Source: a virus. From it: a stretch of 21,648 nucleotides of DNA. Positions 417 to 4,819 of this stretch are shown here, one piece after another. The notes beneath the pieces were generated by a model. The model did no database searches and was not told where the DNA came from. It saw only the letters and a program-made list of their open reading frames with translations. Where the stretch lies: positions 1 to 21,648 of IMG/VR virus record IMGVR_UViG_3300015608_001846, one strand, 5' to 3'. Position 1 is the stretch's first letter, and every line of letters begins with the position of its first letter. The position numbers were made by a program, and so were the translations under genes.

Positions 417-662
417 TTGGTCGTGCTGATCCTAGCAAAGGGCATCCAACCCGGTGACCTGCTCATCGATGTCAGACTCAATGATGGACCAGTCGATGTA
501 ATTGCGCTTGTTATCGCTGTCAATTCAGCCATGTTGACGTCGAGCGGCTGGCGACTGGTTGAGCTGTCGGTGTTGAAGTCCGGACGGGTCATTGATATCG
601 ATCTCGACGTTGATATGCTAACGACCGTCAGTCGCCCGCCGCGAGCTCGAGCATGCAAGTGA
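417..662 (+). CDS. small PGDL-motif protein, SH3-like paralog family member
   Basis: 81-aa ORF with the motif IQPGDLLIDV near the N-terminus and a beta-rich hydrophobic pattern shared with 653..889, 3901..4161, 4170..4496, 4493..4819 and 8664..9011. Only non-ATG starts are available (TTG 417 or GTG 423) and the RBS is weak, so the start is uncertain. Confidence 0.45.
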   Translation: MVVLILAKGIQPGDLLIDVRLNDGPVDVIALVIAVNSAMLTSSGWRLVELSVLKSGRVIDIDLDVDMLTTVSRPPRARACK

Positions 663-889
663 TCGTTCCAGGTGACATTTACGCTATGTTTGATGGGTTC
701 CTGTACCCGTTGGGCACCTACCGGTCCATATGCCTGGGAGAGCGTTGGCTTCAATCGATGTTCATGCCGTCTGGCATGATTGTCATCATTGCTGTGTTGA
801 CGGATTATGCGATCGTCCTGAAAGACAACCGGCTCTTTGAGATCTCAACAAGCGTCATTGCGCTTTCTCATGTGTTAGTAAAACAGTGA
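653..889 (+). CDS. small PGD-motif protein, SH3-like paralog family member
   Basis: ATG start overlapping the previous ORF by 10 nt. N-terminus MQVIVPGDIYAMF carries the family motif; 78 aa, hydrophobic and beta-rich. Confidence 0.5.
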   Translation: MQVIVPGDIYAMFDGFLYPLGTYRSICLGERWLQSMFMPSGMIVIIAVLTDYAIVLKDNRLFEISTSVIALSHVLVKQ

Positions 890-921
890 AATTCAAGGGT
901 TAGTGGGTATAAGGTGGGCAC

Positions 922-1134
922 ATGACGACGATCAGAAAACCGGCACAGTCGCTTGTCAACCACCGCATCGTCTTGATCCGCTGCAGCGATCCGGCGGGGT
1001 GGGTCCCAAGCGACGTCACTGGCACTGTCACCGCAGTGTCGGAGGCTGGATACGTCGACGTCGCTTGGGACAACGGCAAGAAGACCGTTCTCGACTTCGC
1101 CGCTGGCGATCGCTGGCGGGTCATCTTGTCATAG
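922..1134 (+). CDS. small beta-rich protein, DUF4314-like
   Basis: ATG preceded by TAAGGTGGG. The pattern VLIRCSDP...DVTGTVTAVSEAGYVDVAWDNGKK..L....GDRW matches my recollection of the DUF4314 signature (G.V.L..M.DP...G..GTV..VDD.G.I.V.WDNG..L.L..G.D). Confidence 0.6.
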   Translation: MTTIRKPAQSLVNHRIVLIRCSDPAGWVPSDVTGTVTAVSEAGYVDVAWDNGKKTVLDFAAGDRWRVILS

Positions 1135-1155
1135 CGACAGGTTTTGTTAACAGGC

Positions 1156-1191
1156 ACGAAACAAACGAAACAAAGGAAAAGAGAAAACAAC
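1156..1191 (+). promoter_or_regulatory. T-free A/C-rich 5' leader with tandem ACGAAACAA repeat in front of the MVP start
   Basis: The 36 nt ACGAAACAAACGAAACAAAGGAAAAGAGAAAACAAC contain no T, begin with a perfect tandem 9-mer (1156-1164, 1165-1173) and include AAGGAAAAGAG as a purine-rich RBS. Unstructured A/CA-rich leaders are known translation enhancers in bacteria. Confidence 0.4.
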
Positions 1192-3856: not shown

Positions 3857-3894
3857 AGCGCCTGACCTACGTGACGTAGGTCAGGCGCTTGTTT
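3857..3894 (+). terminator. rho-independent terminator after the MVP gene
   Basis: Perfect 15-bp stem AGCGCCTGACCTACG / CGTAGGTCAGGCGCT (3857-3871, 3875-3889) with a TGA loop, followed by TGTTT. It begins 20 nt after the MVP stop codon. Confidence 0.8.
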
Positions 3895-3900
3895 ACGTGA

Positions 3901-4161
3901 ATGACATCGTTTAGATCGATGAATGATGAACTTGAACACGTGTGGATCGGACCGACACCAGGCGACCTGGTTCAGGTCAATGGACACGTAGCAGTGTACA
4001 ATCGCTTTTGGAATAAAAGCTATGACATGAAACTGCTCTACATGTTGAAGTCTGACGACATTTGTGTGGTGCTCGGTTGTGTTGAACACGAGCGAGACTG
4101 GTTTTATTTGGTGAGCAGCCACCTCGGGATCGGCTGGATCCTACGTGCTAGTCTGCTCTAG
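3901..4161 (+). CDS. small SH3b-like protein, PGDL family member
   Basis: 86 aa. Motif PTPGDLVQVNGHV, then ICVVLGCVE and WFYLVSSHLGIGWILRASL, which resembles the bacterial SH3 ending (W.kV...G..GWv). The start (ATG 3901, or ATG 3919) lies only 6 nt after the terminator tail, so expression probably depends on read-through. Confidence 0.55.
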   Translation: MTSFRSMNDELEHVWIGPTPGDLVQVNGHVAVYNRFWNKSYDMKLLYMLKSDDICVVLGCVEHERDWFYLVSSHLGIGWILRASLL

Positions 4162-4169
4162 AACCCAAA

Positions 4170-4496
4170 ATGACGATCCACAGTTCACCGAAACTACATG
4201 TCTATCCGCAATACGCTGTCGCTTGGAAAACATCAAAGATTGCTCCGGGCGACCTGGTCGTCTCGCCCGGCGTCACCTGTTACGCTTGGCGTGACTTCTA
4301 CCAGTCGCCCGTCTTCAATCCGCCCTACAGCATTGAATCTAGCGACCAACCGATGATCGTCATCAGCATCCTTGAGTGCGTCGACACAGGAGTGAAATTC
4401 TCTCTGCCGCCGTCGCTTTGTCAACCCGAGCACGATATGTTGGTCTATGTCGTCCTCACTCAACACGGGTTGCTGTGCGTTCCGATGTTACGATGA
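4170..4496 (+). CDS. small PGDL-motif protein, SH3-like paralog family member
   Basis: 108 aa. Motif KIAPGDLVVSPGV, then MIVISILECVD and VYVVLTQHGLLCV in the same order as in 3901..4161. It starts 8 nt after the previous stop. Confidence 0.55.
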   Translation: MTIHSSPKLHVYPQYAVAWKTSKIAPGDLVVSPGVTCYAWRDFYQSPVFNPPYSIESSDQPMIVISILECVDTGVKFSLPPSLCQPEHDMLVYVVLTQHGLLCVPMLR

Positions 4497-4819
4497 TTGA
4501 TGCAAGGAACCGTGAGCCAGAGCCCGGCGCCGGCCGCGAGCTCGATACACGGGTCATGAGTCATATACAAATGAGCATACGCAATTGTTACTGTTACGAC
4601 CGGGCATCGCTCGATGATTCTGGGCTTGTCCCGGGCGCATTGGTCATTGACAGCTATGAACCTGATAGGTTGGGTGTCATCATCGCTGTCGACGCAAACT
4701 CAGATGTCTACACTGTCGCCTGGAGCCGGCAAAGCTCTTACCGTTATCGCGACATCTTGGTGTCCCAGTCTATGCTTGTTCCTTTGCAGGAATTCGATTG
4801 TGAGATCTTAACAAGATGA
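4493..4819 (+). CDS. small PG(A)L-motif protein, SH3-like paralog family member
   Basis: The ORF-track ORF 4376..4819 overlaps the previous gene. I prefer ATG 4493, which forms an ATGA overlap with the stop at 4494-4496. Contains LVPGALVIDSYEPDRLGVIIAVDANSDVYTVAW. ATG 4556 (MSHIQ) is an alternative start. Confidence 0.5.
   Translation: MIDARNREPEPGAGRELDTRVMSHIQMSIRNCYCYDRASLDDSGLVPGALVIDSYEPDRLGVIIAVDANSDVYTVAWSRQSSYRYRDILVSQSMLVPLQEFDCEILTR

Follow-up and report, generated by a model that had tools for sequence, protein, structure and literature searches.

The window analysed here, the first 21,648 bases of the 150,835-bp IMG/VR virus record IMGVR_UViG_3300015608_001846 (CheckV completeness 45%), encodes a homolog of the major vault protein (MVP) together with six small open reading frames (ORFs) that carry a proline-glycine motif near the N-terminus. 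On balance, the six are best regarded as local members, or candidate members, of a lineage-specific and fast-diversifying superfamily of proteins of 50-115 amino acids in one huge-phage clade, here defined as uncultured huge phages with an MVP at least 61% identical to that of the window. Within this clade the genes form arrays of co-directional, often translationally coupled tandem genes (minigenes). The family consensus comprises an N-terminal h-x-P-G-D-L-V strand (h, hydrophobic residue; x, any residue) and two further strands that are hydrophobic, the first of them ‘LVIA’; it often ends in a C-terminal G-W-h...L-x-K-V. The two members modelled are predicted to be β-rich. By sequence comparison, ORFs 3901 and 4170 (named by their start positions) are true paralogs in a well-conserved subfamily, and two further conserved subfamilies are represented by ORFs 4493 and 8664; the hallmark is also present in ORFs 417 and 653, young orphans whose placement is uncertain.

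The window is the start of the genome (~320 kb) of an uncultured huge phage, and the same region is present on a near-identical 322,887-bp ENA contig. Labels L004-L060 and G003-G005 denote the contigs and records compared, among which L027 is this phage’s own genome, L029 a 99.6%-identical strain, G005 a complete 369-kb relative, and L037, L059 and L060 one Logan contig (SRR21686417_15476). All six ORFs, and the motif strings quoted for them in an earlier sequence-only reading of the window, are present:

417..662, + strand: ORF 417, 81 amino acids from TTG (gene callers use GTG 423, giving 79 amino acids); GIQPGDLLIDV, then VIALVIAV
653..889, + strand: ORF 653, 78 amino acids, 10-nt overlap with ORF 417; VIVPGDIYAMF, then GMIVIIAV
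3901..4161, + strand: ORF 3901, 86 amino acids, or 80 from ATG 3919; PTPGDLVQVN
4170..4496, + strand: ORF 4170, 108 amino acids; IAPGDLVVSP
4493..4819, + strand: ORF 4493, 108 amino acids, ATGA overlap with ORF 4170; LVPGALVIDS
8664..9011, + strand: ORF 8664, 115 amino acids; FVPGNLLRLR

The same genes are called by independent gene callers on near-identical strain contigs. In each of the six, which all encode 150 amino acids or fewer, h-x-P-G-[D/N/A/T]-h-h falls in the N-terminal half of the protein, and ORF 3901 illustrates the layout of the later strands (PGDLV .. ICVVLGC .. WFYLVSS .. GIGWILRASLL).

Minigene arrays and the relatedness of the six ORFs

In the 150-kb record, PG[DNAT][LIVMF][LIVMFYC] occurs six times in greedily called small ORFs against 0.5 times in shuffles; this call set omits ORFs 3901 and 4170, which are displaced by that caller, and when both are added six of the eight occurrences fall in the first 9 kb of the record. 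The strict motif was found in 87 of 296 small ORFs on the MVP strand of related loci (shuffle mean 4, maximum 10) and in only three of 86 on the opposite strand. In 22 paralogs from a single array, every one of the four bases turns up at the third position of the P, G, L and V codons. The motif is thus conserved at the level of the protein and not of the DNA, and a DNA-level repeat as its source was ruled out by this free variation.

An array of approximately 63 consecutive co-directional minigenes, encoding 50-104 amino acids each and with many 4-nt overlaps, extends over ~17 kb of the Logan contig (L059:350-17282 and L060:1541-4410). Most of its translated minigenes read M-x(1-6)-h-x-PGDLV .. 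h-LVIA-x .. h-h-V-h-h-P .. (G)W-h....L-x-K-V, which matches the layout that had been described for the six ORFs from the window alone. At the downstream end of this array stand a homolog of ORF 4170 and then the gene for methionine aminopeptidase (MAP). In L004, L005 and L006, 20-30 minigenes lie upstream of MVP, and their content differs even between L005 and L006. In the genome of the phage studied here, four more members lie in the 10 kb that precede the window, with one of them directly before it. At L027:136-1407 (9 kb upstream of the window) there are four tandem genes encoding 130, 101, 102 and 92 amino acids, each with two PG-x-h-h strands (e.g., YEPGDLV .. LDPGELALVV .. GWIF), and a 100-amino-acid PGDLF gene at L027:9273-9575 (0.3 kb upstream) ends just before the window start. 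The window thus shows only part of the local family.

A hidden Markov model (HMM; profile A6) was built from 62 minigenes of the phage of L037 and L059 only, and is thus independent of the window. At p<1e-3, this array HMM recovered 79 of 314 small ORFs of the close MVP loci (77 of them on the MVP strand) and 23 of 316 small ORFs of the complete 369-kb relative, compared with two of 314 reversed decoys and none of 119 small ORFs of distant MVP loci. On the 150-kb record, which has about 100 small ORFs, the six ORFs took the top six places. Five passed the same threshold, with 14.5 bits for ORF 4170, 14.3 for 3901, 8.9 for 8664, 8.1 for 653 and 7.3 for 4493 (p 2e-6 to 4e-4; 2e-4 for ORF 653), and ORF 417 lay just outside it (5.6 bits, p 1.3e-3); no other small ORF of the record fell below p 3.5e-3.

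Since the ORFs had been picked for their motif, the scores were also compared with those of motif-preserving shuffles. The real score was equalled by none of 500 shuffles for ORFs 4170 and 8664, by nine for 3901, 20 for 4493, 36 for 653 and 100 for 417. Similarity beyond the motif appears clear for ORFs 4170 and 8664 and modest for 3901 and 4493, and for 653 it is marginal. Profile comparison by HHalign aligned the array with the 4170 family at 81% probability (E 1e-5), with the 4493 family at 55% (E 1e-4) and with the single sequence of ORF 417 at 58% (E 1e-4, 32 columns). A protein-collection search with the array profile recovered only the array’s own contig (182 prefiltered candidates).

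The subfamilies were delimited by clustering small ORFs from MVP loci with phmmer and comparing the 49 cluster profiles by HHalign. ORFs 3901 and 4170 share one cluster via L011:6204. Against an 85-member profile of the 4170 family built without ORF 3901, the latter scores 16.1 bits (E 3.7e-6), ORF 4170 itself 66.5 bits and the other four ORFs at most 4.3 bits. A HMMER search of 1.84e9 representatives with this family matched 96 proteins (clusters at 50% identity) at E<=0.001, and for 57 of these E was below 1e-10. A length of 66-132 amino acids is shared by 86 of the 96, and the ten longer ones are low-complexity or repeat artefacts, as judged from four that were scanned. The 4170 family was not found in 50,697 GenBank phage records.

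ORF 4493 aligns (HHalign 87%, E 4e-6) with a 13-member cluster of small ORFs that L007, L008, L009, L014 and L020 carry downstream of MVP. The pattern of this family is PG-x-x-V-x-H..S-x-G-x-I-I-A..V-L-W-S, and it is rare (six clusters in 5.8e9 proteins). Downstream of MVP, genes of this type are expanded into 2-6 tandem copies per phage (L038:4229-8440, and also in L007, L008, L009, L014 and L020); the copies read PG-x-x-V-x-H..S-x-G-x-I-I-A..V-L-W-S-x-x-P and have C-terminal extensions that vary, with lengths of up to ~170 amino acids. Homologs of ORF 8664 are present in G005, G004 and G003 (E 8e-7 to 5e-3), each beside further PG-motif minigenes. Through an intermediate profile, ORFs 4493 and 8664 appear weakly tied to the others.

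The proposal that the six form one family is therefore not supported in the form in which it was made. ORFs 3901 and 4170 are demonstrable paralogs, and are the only two that direct pairwise and profile comparisons of the ORFs join; ORFs 4493 and 8664 fall in separate conserved families, and ORFs 417 and 653 have no homologs beyond near-identical strains. Judged by sequence, membership of the superfamily is solid for 3901 and 4170 and reasonable for 4493 and 8664; for 653 and 417 it is unproven, and these two are candidates only.

Neither ORF 417 nor ORF 653 has a homolog in five related phage records (two of them 91% and 100% complete), and for ORF 417 none was found in 5.8e9 proteins outside its own cluster of at least 90% identity; this ORF is identical in 21 strain contigs. 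Some of the ORFs, chiefly these two, might be chance open frames in the 55% GC spacer upstream of MVP. Such an origin would fit their lack of homologs beyond strains at least 99.6% identical, the low coding scores (weakly positive at 0.056 for ORF 417, against a training mean of 0.23) and the TTG/GTG start of ORF 417, which has no obvious ribosome-binding site. It is nevertheless highly improbable, given that gene finders call both ORFs in all strain contigs, that the two are tightly packed on the array strand, and that both carry the hallmark at the expected N-terminal place followed by an ‘h-h-V-I-A-V’ strand; most other genes here likewise have no strong ribosome-binding site.

Several results speak against a single superfamily and have to be set beside this evidence. 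Pairwise BLASTP among nine ORFs gave nothing significant, the direct comparison of the 4170-family and 4493-family profiles was null (3.5%), ORF 417 showed no signal beyond the motif in the shuffle test, and the single sequences of ORFs 3901, 653 and 8664 aligned with the array at 49%, 21% and 8%, over 8-16 columns around the motif and mostly of it. Moreover, the structure models described below cover two of the subfamilies, 4170 and 4493, the latter at low confidence overall. Descent of all six from one ancestor is therefore not proven: a strand-turn motif as short as h-x-P-G-D-h-h could arise repeatedly by convergence, in which case the six, or at least 417, 653, 4493 and 8664, would be unrelated small β proteins. 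This seems unlikely, because the motif is ~20-fold enriched only in the small ORFs of this clade and only on the array strand, and its N-terminal position and the order of the later strands are common to members. In addition, scores beyond the motif are significant for four of the six, and the HHalign network connects many small-ORF clusters. The evidence as a whole leans towards the group belonging to one diversified superfamily.

Selection and turnover

Selection was examined in twelve orthologous minigene pairs in or beside the MVP arrays of L005 and L006, for which the ratio of non-synonymous to synonymous substitution rates (dN/dS) was 0.02-0.49. The ortholog of ORF 4170 has a dN/dS of 0.02, with 13 synonymous changes and one non-synonymous change. 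Individual members are under purifying selection, and the minigenes, as their sequences indicate, encode real proteins. Synonymous divergence between neighbouring L005/L006 genes ranges from 0.02 to 0.48 and the distal parts of the two arrays have no common orthologs, which points to mosaicism and rapid turnover. Gene duplication and loss drive the growth and turnover of the arrays. The sequence-only reading had held in reserve the view that the small ORFs were simply a fast-evolving accessory family, and this is the view that the data bear out: the arrays turn over quickly, their members are under purifying selection, and the family is far larger than six.

Strain contigs of the phage itself are 99.6-100% identical and so give low power for polymorphism tests. 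In L029, the only diverged strain, MVP, MAP and the neighbouring ORF 5593 differ by 11 synonymous changes and one non-synonymous change, and ORFs 4170 and 4493 together by four non-synonymous changes and one stop loss, of which three changes and the stop loss are in 4493. This pattern, in small numbers, fits relaxed or diversifying evolution. The stop of ORF 4493 is lost in L029 at window position 4817 (TGA>CGA) and there is a one-base insertion at 4842; ORF 4493 is then called as 122 amino acids, and MAP as 243 amino acids from a later start.

Predicted fold

The AlphaFold2 model of the ORF 4170 protein, made from an 86-sequence alignment, has a predicted local distance difference test score (pLDDT) of 87.5 and a predicted template modelling score (pTM) of 0.79, and is all-β with six strands and one short helix. 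The model of the ORF 4493 protein has an overall pLDDT of 66, with core residues 41-80 at 78-88. Hydrophobic segments that had been picked out as β strands by eye coincide with predicted strands in both (62-69 MIVISILE in 4170; 60-66 LGVIIAV in 4493). From the strand pattern a small β barrel is plausible, and the 4170 model may represent an undescribed small fold or may be too small for Foldseek.

Foldseek searches with both models against the PDB, and with the 4170 model against BFVD, returned nothing at E<=0.001 (best E 1.2 and 0.34 in the PDB and 0.29 in BFVD, with template modelling scores of 0.2-0.4), and SH3b-containing lysins, KOW and PDZ domains appeared only among the noise. No SH3-clan Pfam family matched at E<=0.1 in 61 motif proteins including all six, nor at E<=1 for the six themselves. 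Sequence-profile searches of the PDB with three family alignments gave no match, and scans with Pfam and PHROGs matched only the MVP domains and, as DUF4314, the mini-protein at 922-1134. The SH3-like fold that had been assigned to the six, and the remark that ORF 3901 ends like a bacterial SH3 domain, found no support in these searches, which produced neither an SH3 Pfam match nor a significant structural neighbour.

These searches also make it very unlikely that the minigenes encode bacterial SH3 (SH3b)-type modules binding the cell wall or another ligand. The C-terminal G-x-G-W-h..L of ORF 3901 and many relatives does resemble what we take to be the last SH3b strand (in the SH3_3 consensus), the predicted secondary structure is all-β, and SH3b-containing phage proteins are among the non-significant BFVD matches. 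On the other side, in addition to the search results, inspection of the translations by eye alone showed neither an obvious N-terminal signal peptide nor an obvious long hydrophobic stretch. An AbrB/MazE-type ‘GD’ hairpin, which presumably follows a β-α unit, was considered and set aside, since the minigene motif lies at the extreme N-terminus.

Compared more broadly with SH3b/SH3_3, Tudor, KOW and DUF4314 (PF14192) domains, the family with the PGD hallmark is similar in size, in being all-β with 5-6 strands, in its G-D-h-V type first strand and, in some members, in a G-W-h last strand, and a genuine DUF4314 mini-protein is encoded in the same gene row. It differs in that no profile or structural match was found and that the DUF4314 neighbour fails the family profile. 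This neighbour (922..1134, + strand, 70 amino acids) had been called DUF4314-like from its sequence, and the assignment holds: it matches PF14192 at E 1.1e-6 with 29 bits against a gathering cut-off of 27, as well as PHROGs 3782 and 2431, and has a homolog at L008:2501-2704. It is the only ORF with SH3-type Pfam matches, all of them sub-threshold, and the six PGD ORFs have no DUF4314 match. Both 922-1134 and 8217-8435 had been put forward as possible relatives of the six, and both proved unrelated to the group in profile comparisons and with the array HMM (for 922-1134, 2.2 bits and an HH probability of at most 8% against every other group).

MVP neighbourhood and proposed role

Besides the DUF4314 gene, the features that surround ORFs 3901-4493 are:

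1192..3837, + strand: MVP homolog, 881 amino acids from ATG 1192
3858..3895, + strand: hairpin between the MVP stop and ORF 3901, with a perfect 14-bp stem (GCGCCTGACCTACG / CGTAGGTCAGGCGC), loop TGA and U-rich tail TTGTTTA
4829-5596, + strand: MAP (Peptidase_M24, E 9e-46)
5593-6441, + strand: ORF 5593, a 282-amino-acid protein overlapping the MAP stop

The MVP gene matches the Pfam families MVP_shoulder (3e-29), Vault, Vault_3 and Band_7. Its relatives all come from uncultured huge phages (38-70% identity, 20 IMG/VR contigs of up to 436 kb), and it is ~40% identical to the homologs in LR756500, LR756501 and LR756503.

The small proteins had been suggested as adaptors, cargo or decorations of the vault-like shell, co-expressed with MVP, and their position gives this idea its strength. 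Motif ORFs flank MVP in 10 of 10 loci with an MVP at least 61% identical (GC range 35-62%), with 2-10 of them within 8 kb and on the same strand, and in nine loci (L005-L009, L011, L014, L020 and L038) MVP is followed, at a distance of 0.07-4 kb, by 4170-type genes. The order MVP .. 4170-homolog .. MAP recurs in L011, L020 and L038, and the order 4170-homolog .. MAP in L037. That motif ORFs stand beside MVP in every close-clade locus counts against reading them as a merely accessory family, and a functional link to MVP is possible.

A dedicated partnership is quite unlikely, however, on the wider distribution of the family. In the complete 369-kb relative, 22 of 23 members are spread between 39.6 and 133 kb, i.e. 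over ~95 kb; the densest block there (ten members, 86.5-96.4 kb) is on the minus strand, opposite to MVP and 15-25 kb from it. The 63-gene array, which includes a 4170 homolog, lacks an MVP gene over the ~20 kb that run to the contig end. Conversely, motif ORFs are absent or single in 12 loci with an MVP 38-53% identical, and the 119 small ORFs that the array HMM rejected surround MVP in 11 more distant huge-phage loci, which thus carry the MVP gene without the family; the sequence-only reading had itself named such loci as a ground for abandoning the association. Members far from MVP, MVP-free stretches and MVP loci without members together show that co-occurrence is not obligate. Dozens of divergent paralogs are also unlike stoichiometric shell partners.

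The hairpin at 3858-3895 bears on the same question. It folds at -33.9 kcal/mol (z -5.5), as well as which none of 200 shuffles folded, and looks like an intrinsic terminator or RNA-stabilising element; a consensus promoter/terminator scan gave counts no higher than in shuffles and missed this hairpin. As it parts MVP from ORF 3901, the claim that the small ORFs and MVP form one transcription unit is not borne out. Eukaryotic vaults have associated proteins, namely vPARP, with its MVP-interacting INT domain, and TEP1. The likeness to these goes no further than the idea of shell binding by small proteins whose genes lie beside MVP; a relation in sequence was not detected, and the PGD family is not confined to MVP neighbourhoods. 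MVP and the minigenes share a genome arm, and nothing in the sequences points to a functional pairing. Inferences about the working of the phage vault-like protein should therefore not be drawn from the minigenes.

Downstream of the hairpin, ORFs 3901, 4170 and 4493, MAP and ORF 5593 are tightly packed, with gaps of at most 9 nt or ATGA overlaps. In the contig index, 5593-6441 carries the precomputed label PF26128:Gad2 (Gabija anti-defence), which, if real, would put an anti-defence gene into this tight gene row; our own Pfam hmmscan was negative even at E<=10, and the label was not relied on. Other genes of the window include GroEL, metallophosphoesterase, lysozyme, NUDIX and similar. The accessory genes on the minigene arm are MVP, MAP, phosphoesterase and GroEL, and an ADP-ribosylglycohydrolase and a NUDIX protein on the same arm were read from ORF translations, with no profile search behind either. 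A very acidic 119-amino-acid ORF at window positions 21-380, just upstream of ORF 417, is conserved in every strain contig and lacks a PG motif; neither Pfam nor PHROGs matched it, and no homolog turned up in the related loci.

Paralog expansion is already known in jumbo phages. In RaK2, ‘nearly 10% ... are paralogues’ (PMC3622015), and phage G has about 35 zinc ribbons that represent a paralog expansion (PMC7824862). The PGD minigenes are likewise many diverged tandem paralogs of one lineage with no assigned function, and resemble these expansions in their many diverged copies of small proteins, tandem co-directional arrays, restriction to one lineage, fast turnover and suspected role in host interaction. 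They are distinct in their N-terminal PGD strand, their size of 50-115 amino acids and the lack of a PHROG or Pfam match, in their known occurrence, which is limited to uncultured huge phages with an MVP gene, and in subfamilies so divergent that only intermediate profiles join them. The family itself is thus new, although lineage-specific paralog expansion in jumbo phages is known as a kind.

A second comparison is with host-takeover and anti-defence clusters. The SPO1 host-takeover module, the T4 hyperplastic regions and anti-CRISPR loci are arrays of small early genes. Like the PGD arrays, they consist of very small, fast-evolving co-directional genes without known domains, with accessory enzymes nearby and a content that varies between relatives. 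Unlike them, they hold mostly unrelated genes and not dozens of paralogs of one family, and the PGD arrays are known here from genes alone.

The small accessory proteins probably bind host targets, in agreement with the role generally suspected for paralog expansions in cultured jumbo phages. Each minigene would encode one small binding domain, and an array would form a diversified panel of binders against host targets, serving host takeover or counter-defence, in which duplication followed by divergence could supply new specificities. The closeness to MVP would then reflect a common place in the accessory arm and not dedicated partnership with the vault-like protein. It must be set against this proposal that the function is wholly inferred, the family having neither a known domain nor a structural neighbour. 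In its strongest form, namely an undescribed superfamily with a possibly unsolved fold whose array acts as a fast-evolving library of single-domain binders neutralising host defence or other host proteins, the proposal is tentative and rather doubtful. It is less likely that such a library is loaded into, or displayed on, an MVP compartment.

Small genes that defy annotation take up a sizeable part of huge-phage genomes. For one such block there is now a handle: its hallmark makes it recognisable, a profile for it works, its conserved core subfamily has been modelled confidently, and it shows evidence of selection. If the arrays are indeed binder panels, new proteins for host takeover or anti-defence could naturally be sought in them, and they would offer a clean case of phage novelty arising via duplication.

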